Shown: positions 5,268 through 55,907, counted from the first letter of the stretch. The stretch is 64,000 nt of DNA from Verrucomicrobiota bacterium (GCA_027493615.1 JAOSKK010000012.1:228644-292643); one strand, 5' to 3'. Made by a program: numbers and translations. Notes: generated from the letters alone by a model not told the origin.

Positions 5268-6983
5268 CTACGGCGCAGACACCCAACGCCACTGGTGCGC
5301 CGGCAGTTCCAGTTCCGCACCGTCCAACCGCACCCGCGCCGTGGCTTCGCCGAAGTTGTAGAGGCAACGTCCCCCGCCGAAGAGATACAGCCCAACACCC
5401 GCCGGCGCCTCCCAGGCCACGCCAAGCGGGGAGAGGAGAGCCGCGCGCAACTCGTTCGCAAAGGGTTCCGGCAACTCCGCCAGGCCCCGCGGCTTCGGAG
5501 CCAACAGCCACTCACCGCTCTCCCGAAAGTCCGCCTCCGAAAAGGTGCGGACGTTCAGCACCCAAACCCGGCCAGCTTCAAAGGTGCGTTCCGTGAGCAA
5601 TGGAACCGGACGCCCACCCCGGATCACCTCGAGCCGGGCGCGACTCTCCGTGACTCGCACACCGCCGTCCACATCCAGCGGCGACGCGAATGTCCCCAAC
5701 GTCGCCCCAAACCGATAGGTCTCGGCCACCAGCGGCTGAGCCGCAGGCCCGACCTCGACTCCGGCCCACTGCGCCGCTTCGGAGCCCACCATCCGCACAA
5801 AGGCGGGTGTCACAACGACCGCACCCCCGCGTTGAACCTGCCCCTGCGCCCGGCGCAGGGCCTCCGCATCGGCAGCGGCTTGCACTCCCAAGAACACGGC
5901 GCGCGCCTCCGTGGGATAGGAGGACACGGGCACCACCGGCAGCCCGATCATCCCGAGATAGTCCGCCAAATACAGGTTCTCCTCGCTTTCGCTTCCGGGG
6001 GGCTTGTAGAACGCGAAGCCGCTGGGTGTCTGCCCCCGCACCCGCGCGGCCAGGGCCTGGAGGTCGGGCAATCGTGCCGCCAACAACGCATCCCCAGGAT
6101 GGCCGTCCATCAGATCGCCCAAACGGAACAAGGTGAGGTCCCGGGCGCCCGCCAGCACGCTCTGATATGCCTGGTCGATAAAATGCTGGGCGGAACACTC
6201 GATGTGGTCGAACCACGCGCCCATCACCTTCGGCCCGGCGACCGACTGCAACCAACGAAAGTTCATGTATCCTTCGGTGGGCTGCACGAATCCCATCCGC
6301 CGGGTCTGCGGGTTGCGCACTTCCGTCCCCACCCAGATCGCATCAAAGGGTGGCGACATCCGCGCCGGATCGTAGCCGAACAGATGGAACCGGTCGTACC
6401 ACTGCGGGTACTTCAGAATCAAACGCACCCCAGGATGCGCGTCCTTCGCCGGACGCACGATCATCGGCTCGATCAGCGACACGAGCAGGTCCCGACGGTA
6501 CTCGCCCCAGGAACGGCTCCCGCGCGCGACTTCGGACTCGGCGGAGGTGTCGGCCGTGCAGTAGAAGTCATCGACGATCAATTCGTCGAACAGGGGGGCG
6601 TTTTCGCGGAAGAACTGTGCGACGTCGCTCTGTGTCTTCGCGCTCTGCCAATTCAGCCAGCTCAGCGCCGAGTCCTGTCGGGTCCCAAACCGGCTGCCAG
6701 GCACGGTGGCGATCCCGCCCGCACACCGCACGCCCCGGGCGTGGAAATCGTCGCGGACTTCCCGTAGCAGGTCCGGCGGTACGTACTCATCCCCCCGCCG
6801 TCCTTCCAGAAAGAGCCGGTCCACTCGCAACGGCGCAAGCACCGCAGCAGCCCGGACGCGCTGCTCGGCCGTCGCCAGATGCTGGAGGACATCGCCGGCC
6901 GTCGCGTAAACGCTCACCGTAAAGGACTCGCCGGCACGCAGAGACGCGGCCAGCACCAGGGTAACAAGGAGGCGAATCATCAC
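5268..6983 (-). CDS. Secreted uncharacterised glycoside-hydrolase-like (TIM barrel) protein
   Basis: 571-aa ORF with Sec signal peptide; ELIVDDFYC and ILKYPQWY motifs. Fold assignment is inference. Confidence 0.5.
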   Translation of the reverse strand: MMIRLLVTLVLAASLRAGESFTVSVYATAGDVLQHLATAEQRVRAAAVLAPLRVDRLFLEGRRGDEYVPPDLLREVRDDFHARGVRCAGGIATVPGSRFGTRQDSALSWLNWQSAKTQSDVAQFFRENAPLFDELIVDDFYCTADTSAESEVARGSRSWGEYRRDLLVSLIEPMIVRPAKDAHPGVRLILKYPQWYDRFHLFGYDPARMSPPFDAIWVGTEVRNPQTRRMGFVQPTEGYMNFRWLQSVAGPKVMGAWFDHIECSAQHFIDQAYQSVLAGARDLTLFRLGDLMDGHPGDALLAARLPDLQALAARVRGQTPSGFAFYKPPGSESEENLYLADYLGMIGLPVVPVSSYPTEARAVFLGVQAAADAEALRRAQGQVQRGGAVVVTPAFVRMVGSEAAQWAGVEVGPAAQPLVAETYRFGATLGTFASPLDVDGGVRVTESRARLEVIRGGRPVPLLTERTFEAGRVWVLNVRTFSEADFRESGEWLLAPKPRGLAELPEPFANELRAALLSPLGVAWEAPAGVGLYLFGGGRCLYNFGEATARVRLDGAELELPAHQWRWVSAP

Positions 6984-28905: not shown

Positions 28906-28980
28906 GCCAGGGTAGCTCAGCGGTAGAGCAGGGGACTCATAAGCCCTTGGTCGTGGGTTCGATTCCCTCCCCTGGCACCA
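28906..28980 (+). tRNA. tRNA with CAT anticodon (elongator Met or Ile2), CCA encoded
   Basis: Acceptor stem GCCAGGG/CCCTGGC, D-arm GCTC/GAGC, anticodon loop CTCATAA, T-loop TTCGATT, 3' ACCA. The G1-C72 pair argues against initiator tRNA. Confidence 0.95.
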
Positions 28981-29452: not shown

Positions 29453-30952
29453 CTATTCTGCCCGCAGCCTCCAGAACCGGGCCGGCACCGCCCCATCAAC
29501 CGGAATCTCAAACACCCGCTCGTCGCCCTCGATGCGCACCTCCGGCTCGCTGGGCGTCCAACCCTCCGCCGGGCTGGCGGACTGTTCGATGACCACTGCG
29601 GAAAGCCCCGCCGGCCAGGCGCACTTGATCTTCGGCGCCAGCCCCGGCCCGGCGCCCGGCGCAAACCAGACCCGCAGGGGGAGCCTCGGCGGCCCCGCAG
29701 AGCCTTCGAGAAGCGTCAGGGCGAGGTTGTCCGCCGCGCCGTCGTTGTACGTCCCGGTGAAGCGACGGAGGCGGATCGTCACCTCGATGGTCCGGGTCCC
29801 CGGCGGCACAGCGCTCTGGTCCTGCTGGAAGATCAACGCCGTCTGGCGGTGGCGTGCGTGGGACGGGAGCGGCCCAAGTTCCATCTGGCCCAAGGGCGTG
29901 CCGTCGGACCGGAAATACCGCGCCGTGACCTGGGCACGGTCCTCATCCTCCGCCGCCACGGCTAGCCAGGCCTCAAGCACCGCCTTCAGACGCCGCTCGT
30001 CAATCATCGGTGCCGCCGCTGCCACATCCACCCATTGCCTCGCCAGGCTGCTCGCACTGTCGGGTCCGCCGACGAAGAGATTGCTCCCCCGGTTCTCCGG
30101 CCCGGGAATATCGCCGGCGAACGGGCTGCCGACGGCGTCGTATCGCAGGGCGGTCAACGCGCCGGTGGTTTCCCAGCCGGCGGGCGCCGCCACGGCCAGC
30201 AAGTCCGCCGCGCCGACGCTGGCTTCGGCACCCGGATTGACCAGCAGATTCCGGTTCAGCACCGTCGAGGGATCGGTTCCGCCCCCTCCGGAGTAAGGGC
30301 GGCTCGAAAAACCACCCTGCCCCTCCCGCACGTTCCAGCGCGCCTCATGCTGCAGGGTCGGCACGCCGCTCACGCTCAGTTCCACCACCGTGAAGGTGAC
30401 GTTACCGAACTGCAGGACAAGGCTCTCCGACGGCGGTTGCCCGGCGTCGCGCGCCTCGACTCCCAACTGGCTGACCAGAACCTCCTGGAGATCGATGCGG
30501 GCGAAAAGGACTGAAGACGGGCTCGGGCGCGTCAACTCGAGACGTGCCTCCCGGAACCGGCGGCCCTGGGCGCAGGCCAGGGCCAGCGTCGGCGACGTTC
30601 GGTCGAGGTGCTTGGTGAGCTGCAGGCCGCCGAACTCGGGACCGCCGGTGCCAAGGCTCGCCAGCCGCACGTGGTCGCGCCAGTCGACCACAAGATCCGC
30701 CAGCGGTCCCGCCGCTCGCATCCCGGCAGTGCCTGGATTCGACAACGCCTGCTCCCAACTCGTGAGTTCGATCCAGTCTTTGTGTTCCTTTTCCGTGGCT
30801 TCGCCCTTGAGGTCGTCAAGCCGGAGGTAAGCCGCGCCCCAAGCCACGCCAAGACCGAGCAGGCCCGTGGCCGCCCACGTCAACGCCGCGAGGCGAACCA
30901 CCCCGGAAGTTCGCGCGGCCTGGCCCTGCCGGAAACGGGAGGCGGATTGCAC
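29453..30952 (-). CDS. Signal-peptide-bearing Hcp domain fused to a jelly-roll/lectin-like domain and a C-terminal beta domain
   Basis: Hydrophobic leader, AYLRLDDLKGEATEKEHKDWIEL, TKHLDRTSPTLALACAQG, IDLQEVLVS, ESLVLQFG; then NLLVNPGAE...VPPGTRTI...DNLALTL; ends RFWRLRAE. Confidence 0.8.
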   Translation of the reverse strand: MQSASRFRQGQAARTSGVVRLAALTWAATGLLGLGVAWGAAYLRLDDLKGEATEKEHKDWIELTSWEQALSNPGTAGMRAAGPLADLVVDWRDHVRLASLGTGGPEFGGLQLTKHLDRTSPTLALACAQGRRFREARLELTRPSPSSVLFARIDLQEVLVSQLGVEARDAGQPPSESLVLQFGNVTFTVVELSVSGVPTLQHEARWNVREGQGGFSSRPYSGGGGTDPSTVLNRNLLVNPGAEASVGAADLLAVAAPAGWETTGALTALRYDAVGSPFAGDIPGPENRGSNLFVGGPDSASSLARQWVDVAAAAPMIDERRLKAVLEAWLAVAAEDEDRAQVTARYFRSDGTPLGQMELGPLPSHARHRQTALIFQQDQSAVPPGTRTIEVTIRLRRFTGTYNDGAADNLALTLLEGSAGPPRLPLRVWFAPGAGPGLAPKIKCAWPAGLSAVVIEQSASPAEGWTPSEPEVRIEGDERVFEIPVDGAVPARFWRLRAE

Positions 30953-30953
30953 T

Positions 30954-31511
30954 TCAACCGCCTTTGTTCTGCTTCAGGTCCCAATACACGGCCACCGGCG
31001 TGTCCAGGGTGCCATCCGCCTTCTGGGCCCTGTAGGTCCAGGTGATCTTCGAGAATTTGAACGTGACAGCGTCGCCGGGCGCGGCACCGTCAGCGGCCGA
31101 ATTCTCCACCCGCGAAACCAGCACGTCCTCCATCTTGATCGTGTAGTACTCCTGCTGTTCTCTCCCCGCCCGCCGCACGGTGAGCAACGCGCTCTTGATG
31201 TGTTCCCCACTCGCGCAGGCCAGGAAGAGCCGCGGGGAGGCCTTGCTCATCCGCGCCGTGATGGCGAAATCCTGGAAGGAAGCCTTCCCTGCGCCGGCGC
31301 CGCCACCCCCCGCGGTGCTCCCCGAGTTCGAAGCCGCCCAGGAGAAGGATCCGAGTTCGATCTCCCCCGGGTGCCTGGCGTCCTGCGATTCGCCCGGGAT
31401 CCCGTCGATCTTGAGAAAATAGTCATCCGCTGCCGACACGGAAGAGGCCCCGGCCAAAGTCAACAGGGCGACGGCGGTGAGCTGGAGCAGTGCGCTCAGC
31501 CTGGTTTTCAT
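30954..31511 (-). CDS. hcp: Hcp (type VI secretion tube family) protein with N-terminal signal peptide
   Basis: MKTRLSALLQLTAVALLTLAGASSVSA leader, then DYFLKIDGIPGESQDARHPGEIEL, GGAGAGKASFQDF, SKASPRLFLACASGEHIK, WDLKQNKG. Confidence 0.9.
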   Translation of the reverse strand: MKTRLSALLQLTAVALLTLAGASSVSAADDYFLKIDGIPGESQDARHPGEIELGSFSWAASNSGSTAGGGGAGAGKASFQDFAITARMSKASPRLFLACASGEHIKSALLTVRRAGREQQEYYTIKMEDVLVSRVENSAADGAAPGDAVTFKFSKITWTYRAQKADGTLDTPVAVYWDLKQNKGG

Positions 31512-31737: not shown

Positions 31738-31766
31738 TTGACGCCTGCCACCGCGCGCGCTAGCTT
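31738..31766 (+). promoter_or_regulatory. sigma70-type promoter upstream of the fluoride riboswitch
   Basis: TTGACG-N17-TAGCTT, ending 13 nt before the aptamer. Confidence 0.65.
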
Positions 31767-31779
31767 CATCCCCGTTGCA

Positions 31780-31838
31780 GGCAATGGAGTTTGCCTGACC
31801 GCGTCGCGGCGAACCGCCCTCGGGCTGATGACTCCTAC
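31780..31838 (+). ncRNA. Fluoride riboswitch (crcB motif)
   Basis: GGCAATGGAGTTTGCC...AACCGCCCTCGGGCTGATGACTCCTAC. P1 GGCAA/TTGCC, hairpin GCCC/GGGC and pseudoknot GGAGT/ACTCC fit the known consensus. Confidence 0.92.
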
Positions 31839-31865
31839 CGACTAAATCGAGTCTGGTAGCGAGTC

Positions 31866-32582
31866 ATGGTAACCACAAGTCCAGCCGCCCCGCTGGTGTT
31901 GCCGTTCGTGGGGCGGACCCGAGAGACCGCGGAGCTGCGTCGGCTCCACGCCCTGCAACAACACGCCCTGATCCTGGGTCCGGCGGGGGTGGGCAAGACC
32001 GCCCTCGTCGCGCACCTGCAACCCCAGCTCCGCTTCCTCCAGTGCCCGCACTCGGAACACCTGGGCGAGATCTGCGCCAGCCTTGAGCGGGAGCTGGGCC
32101 TGACGACGGAAGGCTTGCGCCTCGTCGAACGGAAGCCGCGGCTAAGGCAGGCCCTCGCCCAGGCTGGGCGGACCGTGGTGTTGGACGGTGTCGGCTGGAC
32201 GACGCCCAAGCTCTGTTCGTGGCTCGAGACGGTCATGGCACGCACGCCGGTCTGGCTGTGCACGCGCTCCGCCCATCCTTGGGACATCGGACATGCCTGG
32301 AGATTGCTGGTCCGGTTTCAACGGGTGGAACTTCAGGCCTTGCGGGCGGCCGAGACGCAGGCGCTGGTCGAGGCCGTCGTGCAGGGAGGTCTCGTGCCGC
32401 CACAGACGCGGTCGCTCGCCGCCTGGCTCCAGCGGCGGTCCGGCGGCAACCCGCGGAAGCTGTACCAGTTCCTCGCGGAACTGAACTCGGGCCACTACGA
32501 TCTGGACAATCCCCTGGCCTTACGTCGCCTGGAGATGGACCGGCGCATTCACGAAGCCTTTCCCCCGCCGCCGCCGGCATGA
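31866..32582 (+). CDS. Small P-loop (AAA-like) ATPase
   Basis: PFVGR, Walker A GPAGVGKT, Walker B-like VVLDG, SGGNP. Confidence 0.8.
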   Translation: MVTTSPAAPLVLPFVGRTRETAELRRLHALQQHALILGPAGVGKTALVAHLQPQLRFLQCPHSEHLGEICASLERELGLTTEGLRLVERKPRLRQALAQAGRTVVLDGVGWTTPKLCSWLETVMARTPVWLCTRSAHPWDIGHAWRLLVRFQRVELQALRAAETQALVEAVVQGGLVPPQTRSLAAWLQRRSGGNPRKLYQFLAELNSGHYDLDNPLALRRLEMDRRIHEAFPPPPPA

Positions 32583-34580
32583 ACGAGAATCACCAACGAC
32601 ATCTGCTGGTGACGCTGCGCCACCTCGACCACCTGCTGTCGGGTGCCGAGCAGGCCCTGGCCGGATCCCTTTCGCCCTTTGCCGAGTACACGCAGGACTC
32701 AACCCCCGTGCAGCGCCAGGTGGTCCACGATCATATCGAGCGGGTGCGCGCCACCCTGCTTCGGGTCCTGGCGGACCTGGAGCTCCCCGGCCCGCGCCGG
32801 TCTGCGGGGCGCTCTGGGCGGCGCGCGGACAGATCACCTTCGCGTCCATCGCCATCGCGGAGATGGAACCGAAGCGCCTGCGCGGCTACGGTGCCCTCTC
32901 CGAAAGTGACACCCGCAAGGTCGAACGAGCCGTGGCGGAATTGAACGCGGCGCTCGAACCTTTGAGCGCCTTCCTCGACCAGGGACCCGGCGCGGATCTC
33001 CAGGCCCGCCTCGATCGGTTGGAGCAAACCCGCGACGAGGTTCGGCTGGTACGCGAACTGGAGCGGGTCATCACCCACCACGGCCTGGTGGAGTCGCGCG
33101 GCGCCCTCGCCCGCCTGTTGGACCGCATGGAAAACGGCGTCTTCGAGATCGGTCTCTTCGGCCGCGTGAGCTCGGGCAAGTCCTCCCTGCTGAATCACCT
33201 CCTGGGCGGAGAGGTGCTGCCCGTGGGCGTCACGCCCGTCACGGCCGTTCCGACGCGGGTCCGGTACGGTTCCACGCCGCGGGCAGTCATCGAGTTCGCG
33301 ACGCGCAAGCCGGTGCAGGTCGAGCTCGAGCGGTTGGCCGAGTTTGCCACCGAGCAACAGAATCCCGGCAACGCGAAGCACGTCGCGCGCATCGTGGTGG
33401 AAGTGCCTGCCCAACGCCTGCGTGAAGGCGTCCTGTTCGTGGACACGCCCGGCCTCGGCTCGCTGGCCACCGGGGGCGCCGCCGAAACGGTCGCTTACCT
33501 CCCGCGTTGCGACTTGGGCCTGGTGCTGGTGGACGCGGCTTCGACCCTGAGCCACGAAGACCTGGCCCTGCTGCAGGCGCTCGCGCAGGCCGGAGCCCAG
33601 GCCATGCTCCTGGTGAGCAAGGCGGACCTCCTGTCACCGGCCGACCGCGCGCAGGTGGTGACGTATGCCGAGCGCCAGATCGCCGACCAGTTGGGAATCC
33701 GCCTGGGCGTCCATGCCCTGAGCGTCGTCGGTGCCGAGGCCGTGCTCTGCGATCGCTGGTTCACCACTGAACTCGAACCGCTCCTCACCACCCACCGCGA
33801 GCAGGCGGCGCGTTCGCTGAAACGCAAGGTGGGCGCCCTGCGCGAAGCCGTGATCCAAGCCCTCGAAGCGCGCCGTCGGGGCCCGGGCCGGCCCCCCGGA
33901 GCCACGGAAGCTGTGACCGCCTTGCGGAGCGCTGATGCCTGGATCGAAGCGGCAGAGACCGCCTGTGGCAAGCTGGTGAACGAGGTGCCCGACCTTGGCC
34001 CGGCGCTGATTGCCCGCGCGGCAAACGCCTTGGCCGAAGCGTGGCAAACACGCGTGTCGGCGCCTGACGCGTTGGCGGGCCAATGTACCGCCGCCCTTCT
34101 GCATCCCGTCGCCGCCACCACCAGCAGAATGATCGAACGGCTGGAGGACCTCCGCCGGCAGCTCGAGGAGGCCCTGGCAGCCGCACGGCGTGTGCCGGGG
34201 GGCCTTCGAGCCTGGGCGAACCGCTGCCCCGCCCCGCCGGCCTCCCCCTCTTCGACCCCGGACGTCTGCTGTCAGGCGACGACCTGCGCCGGCCACGGCT
34301 GGCGATGCTGGGGTTCGGGAGGGTCCTCCGCCACGGGGCCAGCGTCCGCCTGCAGCGCACCCTCGGCGACCCGTTGAGCTCCCTGCTCCGGCAGCACGGC
34401 CAGCAACTGCGGAAGTGGCTGCGGGAGGAACTCACCGGCTTGAGGGCCGCCTTCCATGCCCAGGCTGACCCGCTCCGTGCAGCGTGGGAGCCCCCGATGG
34501 CGGCGTCTGCCGGCGACACTGCCCCCGCCAGGAGTCTGGAAAGCGACCTTGCCCTCCTGCAACATTGGCCGGGCAGTTGA
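32579..34580 (+). CDS. Bacterial dynamin-like GTPase 1 (frameshifts near 32795 and 34205)
   Basis: G1 GRVSSGKS, G2 LPVGVTPVT, G3 DTPG, G4 SKAD; long helical N- and C-terminal regions. Confidence 0.88.
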
Positions 34581-34594
34581 GGCCGCCTGTCATT

Positions 34595-35722
34595 ATGCGA
34601 ATCCTCATTGTCAGCGACATCCATGGCAACTGGCCCGCCTTGCAGGCGGTTCTGGCCGCGGCGCCGCCCACCGATGAGGTGCTCTGCCTGGGCGACCTGG
34701 TGAACTACGGCCCGCAGCCGGCCGAGTGCGTCGGATGGGCCATGAACCAGGTGGATCGCGACTGGGTGGTCCAGGGCAACCACGACCGCGCGCTGGGCCG
34801 CGGCGAAGACCCCCACTGCTCGGTGGCGTACGCGGCCCTGGCCGCCGCCACCCAAAGTGCCACCGAGGGAATGCTGAACGAGGACATGAAGCGGTTCCTC
34901 GCCAGCCTCGAGCCCCTGCAACGGTTCCAACTGGGCGAGGCCGTCTTCGTGGCCTGCCACGCCGTGCCTTCCGACCCGCTCTACCACTACCTCCCGGACA
35001 TCGGCCCGGTCACGCTGTGGGAGTCGGAGCTCAACGGCGTGGGCTGGCCCGACTTTCTCCTGCTCGGCCACACCCACTTGCCCATGAAAACGCGGTTTCG
35101 CAAGACCCTCGTGGTCAATCCCGGCAGCGTGGGCCAACCCAAGGACGGCGATGCCCGGGCTGCCTACGCCCTATGGGAGGATGGGGACATCACCCTGCAC
35201 CGGACGGCCTACGATATCGAGGCGACCCTCCGGGCCTACGGACGGCTGAACCTGGATCCCCAGATGGTCGCGGTGTTGGCCGAGGTCCTGCGCACCGGCG
35301 GTCATCTGCCTCTGGACCAGACACCCGGCGAACTGCTGCAGACATTCTACCGGCAGCACCCGGACAAGCTCGAAGCCATCTTCTACCTCCAGAAACTCCT
35401 GAACCGACGGGTCGGCCTGGACACCGATCGTCTGGACGATCGCGCCCGCCAGCACTGGACGCTCAACTACTGCCGGGCACTGGTGCAGCAAACCGCCCGG
35501 CTGACCGAGTGCGTGCCGTGGAAGTGGTGGGCCACCTATGAGAAATTCGACAAACCCCATGCCCGCATCGAGATCGCCGAACTGCTGCACCTGGTCATCT
35601 CGCTGGCCCAGGTCCTCGAGCTCACGCCGCAGGAGCTCTTCGAGCTGCACACCAAACAGCATCGGCTCGGCCTGCTCAGCCAGGAACCCACCGGTGGCAC
35701 CCCACCGCCAGCCAAGACTTGA
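34595..35722 (+). CDS. Metallophosphoesterase fused to a degenerate all-alpha (dimeric) dUTPase-like domain
   Basis: SDIHGN, GDLVNYG, GNHD, GHTH, NPGSVGQP; C-terminal WTLNYCRAL...VPWKWW...ARIEIAELLH. Confidence 0.85.
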   Translation: MRILIVSDIHGNWPALQAVLAAAPPTDEVLCLGDLVNYGPQPAECVGWAMNQVDRDWVVQGNHDRALGRGEDPHCSVAYAALAAATQSATEGMLNEDMKRFLASLEPLQRFQLGEAVFVACHAVPSDPLYHYLPDIGPVTLWESELNGVGWPDFLLLGHTHLPMKTRFRKTLVVNPGSVGQPKDGDARAAYALWEDGDITLHRTAYDIEATLRAYGRLNLDPQMVAVLAEVLRTGGHLPLDQTPGELLQTFYRQHPDKLEAIFYLQKLLNRRVGLDTDRLDDRARQHWTLNYCRALVQQTARLTECVPWKWWATYEKFDKPHARIEIAELLHLVISLAQVLELTPQELFELHTKQHRLGLLSQEPTGGTPPPAKT

Positions 35723-35734
35723 GTGAGGTGAGGT

Positions 35735-37455
35735 ATGATGGGACCCCAAGGGATCTTGGATCGCGTGGCGAAGGTCGCCGGAGACTGGCACCTCGCGAAT
35801 CTCCAGCCCCAGATCGCCGCCTGCCGCCGGCAATGGAACGGCCACACGACCATCGACGTCGCCGTCTTCGGACGCTTCAAGGCGGGCAAGAGCTCCTTCC
35901 TCAATCATCTGGCCGGACGCGCCGTGCTCCCCATCGGGGTGGTGCCACTTACCGCAGTCATCACGCGCCTGCGCTACGGGCCGGTGGAGCGCGCCGAGGT
36001 TCGTTTCCTCGACGGAACCCGCCGCGCCATCGCGCTCGAGGAGATTGGCCTCTACGTCGCCGAGAACGAGAACCCCCGCAACCGGAAGCAGGTCGCCGCG
36101 GTCGAGGTCGAGTTGCCCGCCCTCGAGCCGCTCGCGCCGCTCGAGTTTGTGGACACCCCCGGCCTGGGCAGCGCCTTCGCACACAATACCGAGACCGCGA
36201 TGCAATGGCTGCCCAACGTGGGCGCCGCGCTGGTGGCGGTCAGCTCGGATGCACCGCTCTCGGAACGCGATCTGGCCCTCCTGGCGGAACTGCGCCAGCA
36301 CACCCCTAAGATCGCGCTCCTGCTGACCAAGGCCGACCTCCTCACGGAACCGCAACGCGCCGAGGTGCTCACCTTCGTGCGCCAGCAGCTTCGCAGCCCC
36401 CGGCCAACGGCGACCGATCGCGACGCCCCTCCCCCAGCGCCGACGCCAGGTCCGGACCGCCCGACCCCGCCGGGGCGGCCGAAGACGAATGGCCCGTCTT
36501 CTTCTATTCCGTGCGGCCTGGCGAGGACGGCCTGCGGACGGTGCTCGAACGTCAACTGCTGGCCCCCTCATCCAGCACCGCGAGACCGCCGCCGCCCACA
36601 TCGCGCGCCACAAGCTGGATGCGTTGCTTCGCCTGACCCTTGACTACCTCCGGGTGGCGTTGGCCGCCGCCACGCAGGCCGAATCCGCCCGCCAGACGCT
36701 GCAGGAGAAGCTCGCCGAGGAACGCGCCCAATTCGATCTCCTCCGCGCGGAGCTCGGCACGCTGGCGCGTCAGACGTCCACCAGCGCGCTGGACGGGTAT
36801 CTGGCTCGCTTGCTCCCGGTGCAGCAGACGCTCCAGGGGCGGGTCACGCAACGGCTCAGCGAACAACTGCCGCGGTGGGCGCCTGCGTCTGCCGCCCTTG
36901 CTGGCCGCCTGGCGCCAGTGGCTGGGGGAGTTCCTCCAGGCCGAGCTGAGCGAGGTGTCGCGGACCCAACAGGCGATGTTCGTCGCCCCGTTGCACCAGG
37001 TCCGCACCCACCTCACGCGCAGCCTCCGCGCGTTCCACGACCGCCTGGCCGACCACGTGAAGTCGGCCCTCGGGGTGACACTCGCACCGCACGAGTTCCT
37101 CCTCGAGGTCCCGGAGCCAACGGCGCCGCCGGTGGACGTGGCCTTCGCGTTCGACGCGGCCTTCACCACCGCGGTTGCGTTGATCCCCACCACCCTGTTC
37201 CGACGCCCCCTCCAGCGGGTGCTGCTGCGGAAGGCCCGCTACGAGGTCGAAAAGAACCTCTCCCGGCTGGCGGCCGGCTGGCGGGACCGGGTCGCCGGAC
37301 TCATTGACCGGCTGACTCGTGACGCCGAACAACAGGCCCGCGACGAGCTGGGCACGCTGGAGCATACCCTGGCTCAAACCGCCTCCAGCGCCCCGGGCCT
37401 GCGGCAGGTGATCCATGAACTCGAGCAGTTCCAGACCCGACTGCGCACGGAATGA
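35735..37455 (+). CDS. Bacterial dynamin-like GTPase 2 (frameshifts at about 36500-36570 and 36880)
   Basis: G1 GRFKAGKS, G2 LPIGVVPLT, G3 DTPG, G4 TKAD; helical C-terminus EVEKNLSRLA. Confidence 0.88.
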
Positions 37456-38331
37456 CCAGCGCCCCGGGGAACGTTGGTGGCCGCCCCGCCTCCTGTCCGC
37501 GCCGGACGGTTCCGTGCTCGTCCTCATTCCGGCCGGCGAATTCTTCATGGGCTCCACCGCCGAACAGATCGCGGCCGCCGCGGCCATGGACATCGGCGGT
37601 CACCCCGATCTGTTGGTGCGCGAAACGCCGCCGTTCGTCGCCTTCCTGCCAGACTATTACCTGGGCCTGCACGCCGTCACGAATGCCCAGTTCGCGGCGT
37701 TCCTGAACGCGACTCGTCCACCACCCGCCCGGCTCGCCCGCTGGGCGCCCGCGCTGGAACGGATCCTTCCCCGCCCTCCCCGGACCGCCGGTTTGAGGTC
37801 GCGGCTGGATTCGAACGCCACCCTGCCACCCACATCTCCTGGTTCGGCGCGCAGGCCTACTGCCGGTGGGCGGGCCTGCGGCTCCCTACCGAACTCGAAT
37901 GGGAAAAGGCCGCCCGCGGCACGGAGGGACGGGTGTTTCCCTGGGGCAACGAGTGGCGGGCGCACGCCCTACGCTGGCACGGAGGCGACCGCCGTGAAGG
38001 CGAGACCACCGCCCCGGTGGATGCTTATCCCGAGGGCTGTTCTCCCTACGGCCTCCTCCAGATGGCGGGCAATGTCGATGAGTGGTGTGCGGACTGGTTC
38101 CAATGGGACGTGTACCGACATTACGCGGCCGGCGACCTGCGCCCGCCCGTCCCGGGTGAGGAGCGCGTCATCCGCGGCGGGACCTGCCTGCGGTGGCAAC
38201 GACACCACTTCCGCTGCGCAATGCGTCGGGGCAACGATCCGGCCATGGTCAATGTCCACTACACCGGCATCCGGTGCGCGGCTGACGTGTCCGCACGCAG
38301 CCCCGCCTTCCGCGAAGCCCCGGAGGCTTAA
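37452..38331 (+). CDS. SUMF1/FGE-sulfatase (formylglycine-generating enzyme-like) domain protein (frameshifted)
   Basis: [63 protein letters not shown]. Confidence 0.9.
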
Positions 38332-38334
38332 GGC

Positions 38335-39249
38335 ATGGCCGGCGGCTGGTGGGAACGATTCTCGAGCCGGTTGCCGTCGGCGGCTGACGCCCGCGAACCG
38401 TTTGGCGAGGAGCTGCGGAGGCACTGGGGGGACGGCAGCCAGGCACGGCTGCTCATCTACACGCCACCGCACGAGACGGTGAAGGCCCGGTCGCCCGCGT
38501 CGGTCCTGGCTCTGTCCAACCAGGAATGGATGCTCGTGGAAGAGATGGCCGATGGCTCCGTGCGCGTGACGCGCAGCGATTACGACCGCACGTTGTGGGT
38601 CGAGCTGACCAGCATTCTGCTCTACGGAGCGCTTCGCATCGCGTTTTTCACCGAGACGGGCTCCGGCAGTGTCAGCGTGGAGTTCAACACGGTGGCCAGG
38701 CGCTACTATGATGAGGCGATCCAGCGGGTGCTTGATGGCATGGATGGGATCGAGGCCTGTCCGCCGGTGGACCCGGGCGAGTGGGAGCCGTTGCTGGAAC
38801 CGCTGCCGCTCAAGTTCCGCAACGCCTTCCCGCGGTTCACCCCCCCCGGCCAATGCCTGTTGGCCCTGGTTGCCTGGCCAGCCGTGTTGGGCGCACGCCG
38901 CCGCTGGTTCCAGCACGAACTCTGCCCTGAAGCCGTGCTGGCATTCACCAACCGGGAGTTGCTCCTCATCTCCGAGGAAGCGACCTGGACCTGGCTTCGC
39001 CTCGGGCGGAACGACAAGTACGGCTTCATCATCACGCACTGTCCGTTCTCCCGGCTGGCAGGGTGGCGCGTGCAACCGGGCGATCCACTCGCCACGCTCG
39101 AGCTGTCCTTGCGGGCAGGCCGCGGTACCGATGTCCTTCGGATCAACTTCCCCGGGGACCGGCATGGGGAGGTCACACGGTTGCTGGAACGGGCGATGGC
39201 CCAAAGCCCGTCGGGGAATCCGGGACGGAGACCGGCGGAACCCGCATGA
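38335..39249 (+). CDS. Hypothetical protein (possibly two beta-rich repeats)
   Basis: Intact 304-aa ORF tightly coupled to its neighbours; repeated pattern VLALSNQEWMLVEE / VLAFTNRELLLISEE. Confidence 0.6.
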   Translation: MAGGWWERFSSRLPSAADAREPFGEELRRHWGDGSQARLLIYTPPHETVKARSPASVLALSNQEWMLVEEMADGSVRVTRSDYDRTLWVELTSILLYGALRIAFFTETGSGSVSVEFNTVARRYYDEAIQRVLDGMDGIEACPPVDPGEWEPLLEPLPLKFRNAFPRFTPPGQCLLALVAWPAVLGARRRWFQHELCPEAVLAFTNRELLLISEEATWTWLRLGRNDKYGFIITHCPFSRLAGWRVQPGDPLATLELSLRAGRGTDVLRINFPGDRHGEVTRLLERAMAQSPSGNPGRRPAEPA

Positions 39250-39740
39250 CCTTCTTCTGTACTCGATGTTGGGGCGAGGTGGCCGAGGCGGCGGTGCGCT
39301 GCCCGCACTGCGGTGATGACATCGCGGCACGCCAGAGCCGCAGTGACTTCGTCGACAAGCTGCTCGCCGCCCTGCGCCATCCGGAGCCCACGACTCCGAT
39401 CCGAGCGGCGTGGATCCTGGGTCGCCGTCGTGAGCCGCGAGCCGTCCCCGCCCTGGTGCGATTGGCGGCCGCGTCATCCGATCCGTTCCTCGCGGAAGCC
39501 GCGGTGGCCGCCCTGGGCCAGATCGGCGGCCACGAGGCGGAGGCTGCCGTGCAATCCGCCTGCCACCATGCCAGCCCACGGGTCCGCCGCGTCGCGAGGG
39601 AGGCCCTCCAACATCTTGACAGGGACCCCGCCCTTCAAGAAGGTCCGTCCGATGTCTCTGCCTTTCCCCGCGTTCCAAGAAGGCACGCGGGGAGTTCTGC
39701 ATGTGATTCGACCAACCCACACCCCGAAACCACCGCCTAA
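39246..39740 (+). CDS. Zinc-ribbon plus HEAT-repeat protein
   Basis: CTRC...CPHC, then AAWILG, AVPAL, AVAALGQIGG, VRRVAREAL. Confidence 0.8.
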   Translation: MTFFCTRCWGEVAEAAVRCPHCGDDIAARQSRSDFVDKLLAALRHPEPTTPIRAAWILGRRREPRAVPALVRLAAASSDPFLAEAAVAALGQIGGHEAEAAVQSACHHASPRVRRVAREALQHLDRDPALQEGPSDVSAFPRVPRRHAGSSACDSTNPHPETTA

Positions 39741-39741
39741 C

Positions 39742-41154
39742 ATGAGCAGCCCGCGCGACGTCCTCGAACTGGCCAAGAAGCACCAGGCCAGGATGGCCGA
39801 CATCAAGTTCACCGACACCTTCGGCACCTGGCAGCACTTCAGTGTGCCGATCGGCGAGATGACCGAGGAGGTCTTCACCGAAGGCATGGGCTTCGATGGC
39901 TCCTCGATCCGCGGCTGGAAATCCATCGAGGCCTCCGACATGCTCGCCATGCCGGACCCCACGACCGCCTTCCTGGATCCCTTCTGCGCCGTCCCGACAC
40001 TGAGCCTGACCTGCACCATCGCCGAGACCGGCACAAAAAGAGCCCTACGGCCGTGATCCCCGCGGCATCGCGCAGCGTGCCGAGAGGTACCTGTCCAGCA
40101 CCGGCCTGGCGGACACCGCCGTCTTCGGGCCGGAAGCCGAGTTCTTCATCTTCGACAACGTCCAGTTCGACGCCCGGAGCAACGGGACATCCTACGCGGT
40201 GGACAGCGGCGAAGCGGTCTGGAACACGGGCCGTGAGGAGGCCCCCAACCTCGGCTACAAGATCCGCCACAAGGAAGGCTATTTCCCGGTCCCGCCCGCC
40301 GATACCCAGCAGGACCTGCGCACCGAGATGTTGCTCACCCTCCAATCCCTCGGCGTGCAGGCCGAAAAGCACCACCATGAGGTGGCGACGGCAGGCCAGG
40401 CGGAGTTGGGCATTCGGTTCGATGAGCTGGTGAGGTCGGCCGACACCCTGATGCTCTACAAGTACGTCATCAAGAACGTGGCCCGGAAGCATGGCAAGAC
40501 CGTCACGTTCATGCCCAAGCCGCTGTACGGCGACAACGGCTCCGGGATGCACACCCACCAGTCGCTCTGGAAGAAGGGCAAACCGCTCTTTGCCGGCAGC
40601 GAATACGGCGGGCTGAGCCGCATGGCCCTCCACTACATCGGGGGCGTCCTCAAGCATGCCAGGGCGCTCTGCGCCATCTGCAGCCCCACCACGAACAGCT
40701 ACAAGCGTCTGGTCCCCGGCTACGAGGCGCCAGTCAACCTCGCCTACAGCGCCCGCAACCGCTCGGCCGCCATCCGCATTCCGACCTTCAGCGAGAGCCC
40801 GAAGGCCAAGCGCCTCGAATATCGCCCGCCCGACCCCTCGGCCAATCCCTACCTGGCCTTTGCCGCCCTGCTCCTCGCCGGCCTGGACGGGATCCTGAAC
40901 AAGATCGAGCCCGGCGAACCGATGGACAAGAACCTCTACGAGCTCCCCCGGACGAGCTGACGAAGGTCCCGCAGATCTGCGGCAGCCTGAGCGAGGCGCT
41001 CGACTGCCTCGAACGCGATCACGAGTTCCTGCTCAAGGGCGATGTGTTCAGCCGGGACTTCCTGGAAACCTGGATCGCCGCCAAACGCAAGGAACACGAC
41101 GCCCTCCGTCTGCGACCGCATCCCTACGAGTTCTTCCTCTATTACGATGTGTAG
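39742..41154 (+). CDS. glnA: Glutamine synthetase type I (frameshifts near 40040 and 40950)
   Basis: [72 protein letters not shown]. Confidence 0.95.
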
Positions 41155-54701: not shown

Positions 54702-55907
54702 TGGAAACCCCGCCTCCGAATGCACGTCCCCGCTGGCTCAACCGCACGGTGCTGGGGATCGGCCTGGCCTCGCTGTTGAGCGATTGGTCCCATGAGATCG
54801 CCACGGCCGTTCTCCCCCGCGTTCCTGGCCGTGATGGGAGCGGCGCCCGTGTGGCTGGGAGTGATCGAAGGGGTCTCGGATGGCCTCTCCAGCTTTGCCA
54901 AGATGGCCAGCGGCTATTACACGGATCGGCTCCGCCGCCGCAAACCGATCGCCGTGGCGGGCTACCTGATGACCGCCCTGGGCACCGCCTCCTTCGGGCT
55001 GGCTTCGGCCGCCTGGCACGTCCTGCTGGCCCGCTCGCTGGCCTGGCTCGGACGCGGCGTCCGCACCCCCGTCCGCAAGGCGCTGCTGGCGGGTGCCGTG
55101 ACGCGGGAGACCTACGGACGGGCCTTTGGGTTCGAGCGGATGCTGGACACCTGCGGGGCAATCGTCGGCCCGGCCACGGCCATTCTGCTGTTGAGCGCTC
55201 TCGGTCACCACTACCCCGCCCTCTTTGCCTGGACGCTGGTGCCCGGCTTGCTGGCCGTCGGGTTGATCGCGTTCGTGGTCATCGAGAAGGAGCGGCGACC
55301 GGTGAAGCACCTTGCCTTCGGGGCGAGCCTGAAGGCGTTGCCGAAGCCATTTCGGGGTTTGCTGCTGGCGGTGGGAGTCTTCGGTGCCGGAGACTTTGCC
55401 CACAGCCTGTTGATCCTGCTGGCGACGCAGCGGCTGACCCCGACGCTGGGAGCGGCCCGGGCCGCGAGCCTCGCGGTGGGCCTGTACCTGTTTCACAATG
55501 TGCTCTACGCGGTCTTTGCGTTCGTGGCCGGATGGCTCGCCGACCGGCTCGAAAAGCGACGCTTGCTGGCCGGCGGCTACGCGCTGGCGGCCGTGATGGC
55601 GGGCGCCATCATCGCGCTGCCGGCGAACGTCTGGACGCTCGCCCTGGTGTTCGGGTTGGGCGGGGTGTACGTGGCGGTGGAGGAAACCCTGGAAGACTCG
55701 CTTTGCGCGGAACTCGTGGACGAGGCGCACCACGGCATGGCCTTCGGAGCACTGGCGACGGTGAACGGCATCGGCGACTTCCTCTCGAGCGTGGTGGTGG
55801 GTGCGCTCTGGACGTGGGCTGGCACAACGGCCGCCTTCAGCTACTGCGCGCTCCTGTTCCTGGCGGGTGCGGTGCTGGTGCTGCGCGTTCGCACCGCGGA
55901 GAGGTGA
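54701..55907 (+). CDS. MFS transporter (frameshift near 54815)
   Basis: SLLSDWSHE, DRLRRRKP, GRGVRTP, GRAFGFERMLDTCGA, GWLADRL. Confidence 0.9.

Follow-up and report, generated by a model that had tools for sequence, protein, structure and literature searches.

What is a fluoride riboswitch doing ahead of two genes for dynamin-like GTPases? The question is raised by a 64,000-nucleotide (nt) stretch of DNA from a Verrucomicrobiota bacterium (GCA_027493615.1 JAOSKK010000012.1:228644-292643; the window, in what follows, is this whole stretch), in which a fluoride aptamer of the RF01734 class is followed by seven plus-strand genes. These encode a small AAA+-like P-loop NTPase (gene A), two dynamin-like proteins (DLP1 and DLP2), a fusion of a metallophosphoesterase (PE) with a MazG-like domain (PE-MazG), and three further proteins (Table 1). 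Comparison across genomes indicates that the linkage between the DLP1 family and fluoride aptamers is recurrent in Verrucomicrobiota and Acidobacteriota and is not due to chance, and fluoride control of the operon is strongly inferred from sequence. The reading that we favour, with moderate confidence, is that the operon is fluoride-inducible and that its DLP pair, together with the AAA+-like partner, may protect or remodel the cytoplasmic membrane.

Table 1. Features of the leader and operon, in window coordinates; aa, amino acids
Feature	Position	Strand	Basis
Possible promoter, TTGACG, 17 nt, TAGCTT	31739..31767	+	read from sequence; not listed by sigma-70 scan
Fluoride riboswitch aptamer RF01734	31771..31844	+	Rfam covariance-model match
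Expression platform hairpin (predicted)	31828..31867	+	minimum free energy (MFE) fold; conserved helix in orthologous leaders
Gene A, small AAA+-like P-loop NTPase, 238 aa	31866..32582	+	Pfam AAA_22 over cut-off
DLP1, dynamin-like GTPase, 667 aa corrected	32579..34580	+	Dynamin_N E 9.6e-25
PE-MazG, metallophosphoesterase + MazG/dimeric-dUTPase-like domain, 375 aa, intact	34595..35722	+	Metallophos_2, dUTPase_2
DLP2, second dynamin-like GTPase, 573 aa corrected	35735..37455	+	Dynamin_N E 3.6e-22
FGE-sulfatase-domain protein, 305 aa corrected	37415..38331	+	FGE-sulfatase; orthologue identity
Gene F, 304 aa, tandem bacterial-PH-like fold (predicted)	38335..39249	+	predicted model neighbours
Gene G, Zn-ribbon (CxxC...CxxC) + HEAT-repeat protein, 165 aa	39243..39740	+	HEAT_2 E 1.6e-15

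The aptamer, its leader and the operon behind them

The aptamer, which an earlier note on this DNA had called well formed, is borne out by an Infernal search with the Rfam fluoride model: the match covers the full model (1-64 of 64) at 52.0 bits (E 1.6e-11), against a gathering score of 34, and the covariance-model alignment places both helices and the pseudoknot strands GGAGU and ACUCC. The score is above that of most aptamers in relatives, and the only other Rfam match in the window is a tRNA (28906-28977). P1 is fully paired (100%) across 127 related aptamers, and three of its four pairs show compensatory changes; the pseudoknot columns are nearly invariant and therefore uninformative either way on covariation. 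The promoter that the same note placed ahead of the operon is not confirmed: TTGACG (31739-31744) is by eye a good -35 element, but a sigma-70 consensus scan lists no plus-strand site there.

Only 22 nt separate the end of the aptamer from the ATG of gene A. In the MFE fold of the leader, the aptamer 3' strand UGACUCCUACCGACU pairs with AGUCUGGUAGCGAGUCA, which comprises a Shine-Dalgarno-like stretch and the first two bases of the gene A AUG. The predicted energy of this fold, -55.7 kcal/mol (z -3.8), was matched by no sequence among 200 shuffles. An equivalent helix with unrelated loop sequences is predicted in all five orthologous leaders. In each, the start codon forms the end of the motif GGUAGCGAGUYAUG, from which two of the leaders deviate by one or two bases. 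No U-tract terminator was found after the leader hairpin. Because the helix covering the start codon is formed by the same 3' strand that forms the pseudoknot, the leader has the predicted logic of a translational ON switch, with the start region buried in the absence of ligand. The lack of a terminator, which goes with a translational platform, distinguishes it from canonical fluoride regulons.

The tight coupling of the seven genes reported earlier is confirmed, with overlaps or gaps of 14 nt or less throughout (the gene A stop overlaps the DLP1 start as ATGA), and the earlier gene list (AAA-like, dynamin 1, phosphoesterase fusion, dynamin 2, FGE, hypothetical, Zn-ribbon/HEAT) proved right by Pfam and orthologue matches. 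In the window sequence as given, the DLP1, DLP2 and FGE genes are broken by six single-base frameshifts, placed by third-position GC plot and stop-to-stop frames (two in DLP1, three in DLP2, one in the FGE gene), and five of the six lie within or beside short single-base runs. Frame corrections were taken from contigs of three other DNA runs (X4, X6, X7) aligned to an 8.1-kb stretch covering the operon; these contigs show exactly six 1-nt differences, all located at the frame breaks. The extra G after 34196 (DLP1) and all three DLP2 changes (extra C after 36464, extra C after 36562, one base less at 36877) are found in X4, X6 and X7, and the extra C after 37768 (FGE gene) in X4 and X7. The extra C after 32784 (DLP1) is found in X4 only, the X6 and X7 contigs that lack it having depths of 104 and 428, compared with 3-8 for this organism. 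All three corrected open reading frames (ORFs) are uninterrupted. Since the contigs of other runs close every frame, the six frameshifts are, on this comparison, assembly errors, and the operon is intact in the organism.

The core gene glnA, immediately downstream (39742-41150), is likewise split over three frames, with breaks near 40035 (an A5 run) and 40945 (a C5 run); with the six operon indels, this shows that single-base errors, mostly in homopolymers, are frequent in the assembly. Read-level checking is thus needed before any gene of this genome is called a pseudogene, and the genome completeness of 80.8% may at least partly reflect the same type of error. Matches to the 8.1-kb stretch are listed for 20 public runs, which belong to seven metagenome studies of activated sludge, wastewater and bioreactors; of these runs, three may be the source of the window DNA, and the corrections come from others.

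If the operon is intact, does the switch reach beyond its first gene? It has to be considered that it governs gene A only, or is a decaying remnant, the downstream genes being expressed independently. Relatives place separate aptamers before sub-operons (three aptamers in the related genome G021; four at the related locus L027, three of them before sub-operons of the module), the presence of several aptamers per locus suggests that one may not reach far, and the aptamer ahead of PE-MazG has been lost from the window, in which 14 nt separate this gene from DLP1. However, no gap anywhere across the seven genes exceeds 14 nt, and no convincing internal terminator was found: a scan gave nine terminator-like sites, against 4.5 +/- 1.8 in shuffles, and none of them between genes. 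The window aptamer, moreover, outscores most of its relatives, and in the related genome G011 a single aptamer stands about 10 kb upstream of the same genes. A switch confined to gene A is therefore considered very unlikely.

Linkage of the DLP1 family to fluoride aptamers

A search of 60 related genomes recovered the PE-MazG fusion in full from G021, in part from G011 and from none of the others. The first of the three G021 aptamers precedes a cation/proton-antiporter-like gene, a universal-stress-protein-like gene and an enolase gene (named from translations and tblastn likeness, not from Pfam), the second precedes an AAA gene and a truncated DLP1 gene, and the third precedes PE-MazG and DLP2. 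In G011, the aptamer is followed by a gene for a 714-aa membrane protein and other same-strand ORFs, and then by enolase, AAA, an intact DLP1 gene, a shortened PE gene and DLP2. A search of species-representative genomes with a PE alignment, from which 80 loci were kept, gave eight loci that also hold DLP genes, one of them the G021 locus itself; they come from Verrucomicrobiota, Acidobacteriota and a Bacteroidota metagenome-assembled genome (MAG). The other seven hold 16 Rfam aptamers, at least one in each and at least two in six, which stand directly before AAA-DLP1, DLP1, PE-MazG-DLP2 or PE.

A second, species-level search used a DLP1 alignment, and the best 80 of 437 relatives' loci (1.40 Mb) were kept; the query was drawn from riboswitch-linked loci, and kin among the loci are not independent. 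A custom covariance model (R1) built from 22 Rfam-confirmed aptamers gave 161 matches at E<=0.01 in these loci. The nearest same-strand aptamer lies within 300 nt upstream of DLP1 in 41 of the 80 loci, 301-1100 nt upstream in 15, with an AAA gene between as in the window, and 1.1-5 kb upstream in 16. Counting L121, whose aptamer 4.6 kb upstream was seen by Rfam and missed by R1, 73 of the 80 loci have a same-strand aptamer within 5 kb upstream, and 56 have one within 1.1 kb. At L106, which is the G011 locus, the aptamer lies 10.6 kb upstream of DLP1, and at L125, L141 and L154 the contig contains no upstream DNA. In a second check of seven loci, Rfam confirmed 10 of the 11 R1 matches in L122, L137 and L148; the weak match at L122 16324 (27 bits) falls under the Rfam cut-off, and care is needed with R1 matches below about 35 bits. 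The synteny of riboswitch and dynamin pair, which the earlier note had suggested searching for in other genomes, is thus found in several phyla.

The aptamers are also placed as regulators of these genes. The first recognised gene behind the 127 best aptamers of these loci is a DLP gene in 48 cases, AAA in 28, PE in 13, a Na+/H+ exchanger in 13 and another query family in eight, while in 17 it belongs to none of the 20 query families. Although many of the 80 loci are cut by contig ends, 66 hold at least two DLP genes and 62 an AAA gene; they also hold DUF190 (41 loci), crcB (37), enolase (31), PE (27), Usp (20), Na/H (19), a MazG domain (6) and HAD (2). Across five relatives, eight of 11 whole-genome aptamers are at DLP loci, and aptamers are also present at four of another five DLP loci in relatives.

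The module is part of a wider, patchily distributed fluoride island that includes crcB, DUF190, enolase, Na+/H+ antiporter, Usp, HAD and Mrp-like genes. The window genome itself has two fluoride aptamers in 7.6 Mb, the second of which (G000:C34:277188-277275, equivalent to L002 1501-1588; 38.2 bits) precedes genes for CrcB (E 3.9e-23), DUF190 (E 2.1e-40) and a Na_H_Exchanger protein, a classical fluoride unit. Islands with three to five aptamers in about 20 kb are common in Acidobacteriota and Verrucomicrobiota from peat, soil and sludge (L027, L031, L112, L137 and others), and some of their aptamers are divergent and back to back, as at L031 (6141-6205 on the minus strand and 6389-6465 on the plus strand). 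One locus, L173, from a record titled as a Methanoregula sp. MAG, has a DLP1 gene and aptamers among bacterial-type neighbours, and its presence in a methanogen bin is more likely due to a binning error than to a true archaeal member.

By sequence similarity, related DLP genes also stand behind aptamers in the Bacteroidota MAG and on Burkholderia plasmids. On three Burkholderia plasmids there is a gene for a 'dynamin family protein' with about 31% identity over residues 16-435, a span that takes in part of the N-terminal domain described below. The B. cenocepacia conjugative plasmid locus L191 (NZ_CP073671.1 101913-119214) carries five Rfam-scored aptamers in 17 kb, along with genes for two enolases, two pyrophosphatases, HAD, two DUF190 proteins, a MutS-like protein, hydrogenase/Nuo-like proteins and the DLP, and amounts to a dense, mobile fluoride island in a cultured host. 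One of its aptamers stands before a gene for a 206-aa hypothetical protein followed by the DLP gene; this protein matches no Pfam family and was ruled out as an AAA partner by profile comparison (hhalign probability 0.3).

The composition of the islands bears on the possibility that the operon serves compensation, in which the GTPases, the AAA+ protein and the metallophosphoesterase, as fluoride-sensitive phosphoryl-transfer enzymes comparable to riboswitch-controlled enolase and pyrophosphatase, are over-produced, or made as tolerant isoforms, in place of housekeeping copies that fluoride has inhibited. Fluoride or metal fluorides inhibit both dinuclear metallophosphatases and P-loop NTPases, and the islands are rich in enzymes of the kind concerned, as the enolase, PE and HAD counts above and the pyrophosphatase and HAD genes of the Burkholderia island illustrate. 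A 2024 review, in the passage concerned, says of enolase that cells 'simply make more'. Against this, the window genome has no other true DLP that would need replacement, and the specific N-terminal domain of DLP1, the AAA partner and the pairing of DLPs are conserved as in a machine, so that we regard compensation as unlikely to explain the operon.

Patchiness, on the other hand, might suggest an anti-phage defence island, of an Eleos/LeoABC-like or DynA-like kind, that simply lies beside fluoride genes: DLP1-like genes (E<=1e-40) are present in eight of 61 related genomes, the window's own included, a relative is carried on conjugative Burkholderia plasmids, and PADLOC gives weak matches to LeoA and LeoBC. 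These matches (LeoA E 3.1e-7, LeoBC E 4.4e-5, from a scan that used fragments of the frameshifted window genes) cover some 75-100 G-domain positions of profiles 559 and 601 long, and membership of Eleos was rejected, there being no full-length match to its protein models. The neighbours are fluoride genes and not defence genes, and in 76 of 127 cases the gene directly behind the aptamer encodes a DLP or the AAA partner, which speaks for regulation rather than neighbourhood. The anti-phage alternative raised for the dynamin pair in the earlier note accordingly finds no support in these partial matches, and is the most improbable of the explanations considered.

The dynamin-like GTPases and their partners

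Both DLP1 and DLP2 are bacterial dynamin-like GTPases, as judged by their dynamin-type G domains. DLP1 is 63-69% identical to the intact 673-aa orthologue of G011, and DLP2 is, by segment, 53-74% identical to the intact 555-aa orthologue of G021. The G1-G4 motifs GRVSSGKSS, switch-I T, DTPG and SKAD are invariant in 40 of 40 DLP1-family sequences, and window DLP2 has GRFKAGKSS, DTPG and TKAD. The closest solved relatives of both are the membrane-active C. jejuni DLP1/DLP2 (5OWV), IniA (6J72), Nostoc bacterial dynamin-like protein (BDLP; 2J68) and mitofusin: for the DLP1 family the best PDB sequence matches are 5OWV_C (E 2.2e-22) and 5OWV_A (E 8.5e-21), with IniA third (E 2.4e-17), and for DLP2 the best is 5OWV_C (E 2.3e-12), in an alignment extending to residue 303. 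There is also a weak NCBIfam DynA match (E 6.7e-11), far under its cut-off. The DLP2 orthologue has a hydrophobic stretch near residue 446, presumably the position in DLP2-type proteins at which the paddle of BDLP would be. By the Dynamin_N cut-off, DLP1 and DLP2 are the only true DLPs of the window genome (two further Dynamin_N matches reach 23 bits and cover 34 residues), and the pair would thus be made specifically under this switch. From family membership, we infer a role in membrane repair or remodelling under fluoride stress.

What sets DLP1 apart is a family-specific N-terminal domain of about 185 aa, for which no relative was found in Pfam, the PDB or the Atlas of predicted structures; its PDB profile matches were dismissed as chance-level coiled coils (best E 0.045). 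A profile of this domain matched 1515 cluster representatives at E<=0.001 and 368 at E<=1e-30, and among the best 150 matches 110 are proteins of 604-722 aa with the domain at the N-terminus, about a quarter being short. Short forms also occur within the loci studied. In G021 (L023 7810-8391) DLP1 is cut to its first ~150 residues, the remainder of the 193-aa ORF being unrelated, and the 3' end of the gene overlaps the aptamer (L023 8382-8455) placed to drive PE-MazG and DLP2; G036:C60:41243-41674 likewise retains only the N-terminal part of DLP1.

The AAA+-like partner encoded by gene A scores 29.8 bits against the AAA_22 cut-off of 27, and 32.3 bits for AAA_16, just short of 32.6. In 19 homologues the Walker A motif GPAGVGKT/S is invariant, and Walker B reads as four hydrophobic residues and D, then G or H, without the catalytic E. 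PDB matches are to generic AAA+ proteins in the P-loop region only, and no DNA-binding family was matched in Pfam or NCBIfam.

PE-MazG matches Metallophos_2 at 68.1 bits against a cut-off of 27 (E 1.2e-18) and dUTPase_2 at E 5.9e-7, and the metal-binding motifs DIHGN, GDLVNYG, GNHD and GHTH are readable in its translation. Its scores for the YfcE subfamily fall below the cut-offs (TIGR00040, 50.8 bits against 56.25; PRK09453, 62 against 117), and the PE part is, on these matches, a YfcE-like member of the metallophosphoesterase superfamily. The phosphoesterase of G011 (L024 8546-9535, minus strand) has a different N-terminus and no MazG-like domain; since MazG is also confined to six of the 80 loci, the fusion is no fixed part of the module.

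These partners invite an explanation in which the DLPs form a regulatory GTPase system, switching partner enzymes (PE-MazG or AAA+) and so reprogramming nucleotide signalling, in the manner of E. coli RdcA/RdcB, which activate DgcE. The PE gene often lies directly before a DLP gene behind an aptamer (L028, L033, L035), the fusion to a MazG-like nucleotide pyrophosphohydrolase suggests a nucleotide substrate, and the literature, as far as the excerpts go, includes a dynamin homologue that regulates c-di-GMP production. However, with PE in 27 of the 80 loci and the MazG domain in still fewer, neither is a fixed partner, and the closest solved relatives of the DLPs are membrane-tethering BDLPs; a regulatory system is thus judged improbable.

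For the FGE-sulfatase-domain protein, the N-terminal part matches FGE-sulfatase at E 2e-4, and the C-terminal part (37771-38328) is 67% identical to the L027 orthologue; its identity follows from this orthologue, which scores E 4.8e-50. Gene F matches no Pfam or NCBIfam family. Its Atlas model is confident (pTM 0.83) and finds structural neighbours among bPH_2 proteins (TM 0.54), suggesting a tandem bacterial-PH-like fold, and a homologue with 45% identity is encoded in the L027 island. Homologues of gene G are present in the L027 and L031 islands. The last ~30 residues of gene G are of low complexity and are missing from the 134-aa L027 homologue, and the ATG of glnA (39742) lies 1 nt after the gene G stop; the explanation is either a mis-read end of gene G or possible read-through from the operon into glnA. 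Ahead of glnA there is also a perfect TTGACA (39616-39621). Upstream, two type VI secretion Hcp genes (29456-30952 and 30957-31511, both minus strand) are divergent from the operon; the 499-aa Hcp protein has two Hcp stretches and may be a frameshift artefact. A frameshifted MFS transporter gene 15 kb downstream (54734-55898, plus strand) encodes a protein 72% identical to one that ends the G021, G011 and L027 DLP islands.

Known systems and a proposed membrane role

Fluoride riboswitches and BDLPs have each been described before, but neither their link nor the composition of the module appears in the literature searched. Known fluoride regulons include crcB/Fluc, CLC-F, Na+/H+ antiporter, enolase, pyrophosphatase, HAD, formate hydrogen lyase and MutS-like genes, and the classes named in passages of the 2024 review are exporters, antiporters, pyrophosphatase, HAD, enolase, formate hydrogen lyase and chorismate mutase; the term 'GTPase' is absent from that review's passages on fluoride riboswitch genes. 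The present locus shares with canonical regulons the RF01734 aptamer class, the ON logic described for the class in the excerpted sources, and, in relatives' islands, crcB/Fluc, enolase and antiporter genes, but differs in that the window aptamer would control DLPs, an AAA+-like NTPase, PE-MazG, FGE, bPH-like and HEAT proteins, none of which is among the gene classes named in passages of the review and of the discovery paper. The literature search gave no co-mention of fluoride riboswitch and dynamin, although the supplementary gene lists of the 2012 discovery paper (Baker et al.) lay outside it and may include such genes under 'other'. 'Dynamin family protein' had no occurrence among the matches listed, and fluoride riboswitch and metallophosphoesterase came together in one unrelated paper only. 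The view in the earlier note that the module was not recognisable as a characterised one agrees with these searches.

The DLPs themselves have informative precedents. C. jejuni DLP1/DLP2 (5OWV) is the best PDB match of both window proteins and, like them, consists of two different DLPs encoded in one operon, an arrangement typical of bacteria according to the abstract. Compared by G domain with the C. jejuni pair and Nostoc BDLP (2J68), the window system differs in the extra N-terminal domain of DLP1, the conserved AAA+-like partner and the implied inducer. The mycobacterial IniB-IniA-IniC system with its ATPase regulator IniR likewise has stress-induced DLP genes in one operon, and a P-loop ATPase tied to the DLP system, as the available text describes it. 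In that account, however, ini induction is transcriptional, through IniR in response to cell-wall drugs and trehalose, whereas here an RNA would sense fluoride directly, and the 238-aa AAA+-like protein, unlike a DNA-binding regulator, matches no DNA-binding family. B. subtilis DynA is described in its source excerpt as a DLP in membrane surveillance against pore formers and phage; it is a single two-headed fusion, unlike the two genes of the window, and a link between DynA and a riboswitch was not among the literature matches listed.

In the reading favoured here, a rise in cytoplasmic fluoride would lead the Mg-fluoride-bound aptamer to lock its own 3' strand into the pseudoknot, freeing the start region of gene A and allowing translation, and hence stable expression, through the seven coupled genes. 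At their core would stand two bacterial dynamin-like GTPases, forming a heterotypic pair assisted by the AAA+-like protein, and this pair would act on the cytoplasmic membrane by tethering, sealing or fission, so preserving envelope integrity while fluoride poisons phosphoryl-transfer metabolism; the PE-MazG, FGE, bPH-like and HEAT proteins would be accessory parts. A plausible chain from established biochemistry would connect fluoride to the envelope: by blocking enolase, fluoride would lower phosphoenolpyruvate (PEP), PEP-dependent cell-wall synthesis and energy supply would suffer, and the envelope would weaken. In the excerpts consulted, fluoride is reported as a trigger of lysis, DynA is said to cluster at membranes after exposure to pore-forming antibiotics and phage, in line with DLPs responding to envelope damage, and the ini operon to be induced by cell-wall drugs.

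Several points weigh against this reading. The PDB sequence matches of the DLPs are mainly restricted to the G domains, no transmembrane segment was predicted in the DLPs, and the hydrophobic stretch is modest (maximum hydropathy 1.15-1.59). A translational switch directly governs gene A only, and genes two to seven depend on coupling. In a wastewater metatranscriptome run (X20), mismatch-free contigs span parts of gene A and DLP1 only (31844-32116, 273 nt, at the start of gene A; 32913-33176, 264 nt, inside DLP1), which indicates presence and is no proof of transcription; the remaining X20 pieces are 22-31 nt stretches from foreign contigs, and 12 of 30 bins are without depth. Eight of the 80 DLP1 loci have no upstream aptamer by R1, three of these eight (L114, L176 and L181) have none by Rfam either, and the DLP contig of the related genome G017 has no aptamer. 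Selection of the 80 loci by similarity to riboswitch-linked queries confines the linkage claim to this DLP family, and it does not extend to DLPs in general.

A more specific form of the membrane reading, which we regard as rather unlikely, would make DLP1-AAA-DLP2 a dedicated, ancient membrane arm of fluoride defence, in which fluoride is both the transcript-level signal and an allosteric trigger. MgF3- and AlF4- resemble the transition state of the GTPase reaction and hold dynamin G domains together as dimers, so that a fluoride load might drive the DLPs into a long-lived assembled, membrane-clamping state, amounting to a membrane-sealing or vesicle-shedding device, and the N-terminal domain and the Walker-B-poor AAA+ partner might tune or reset this state.

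Whichever form the membrane role may take, the conserved linkage, which recurs across dozens of bacteria from soil and sludge, points to an unreported branch of the bacterial fluoride response, and a conserved riboswitch-controlled membrane GTPase module would point to the cell envelope as a fluoride target beyond enolase and pyrophosphatase. Such a branch would extend the catalogue of fluoride-response genes, of relevance to organofluorine biodegradation, wastewater and acid-soil microbiology. For most bacterial DLPs neither an inducer nor a phenotype is known; this family offers a clear prediction, a signal (NaF) that is well defined, inexpensive and titratable and, in Burkholderia, a relative in sequenced isolates, making the physiology of a bacterial dynamin system directly testable.

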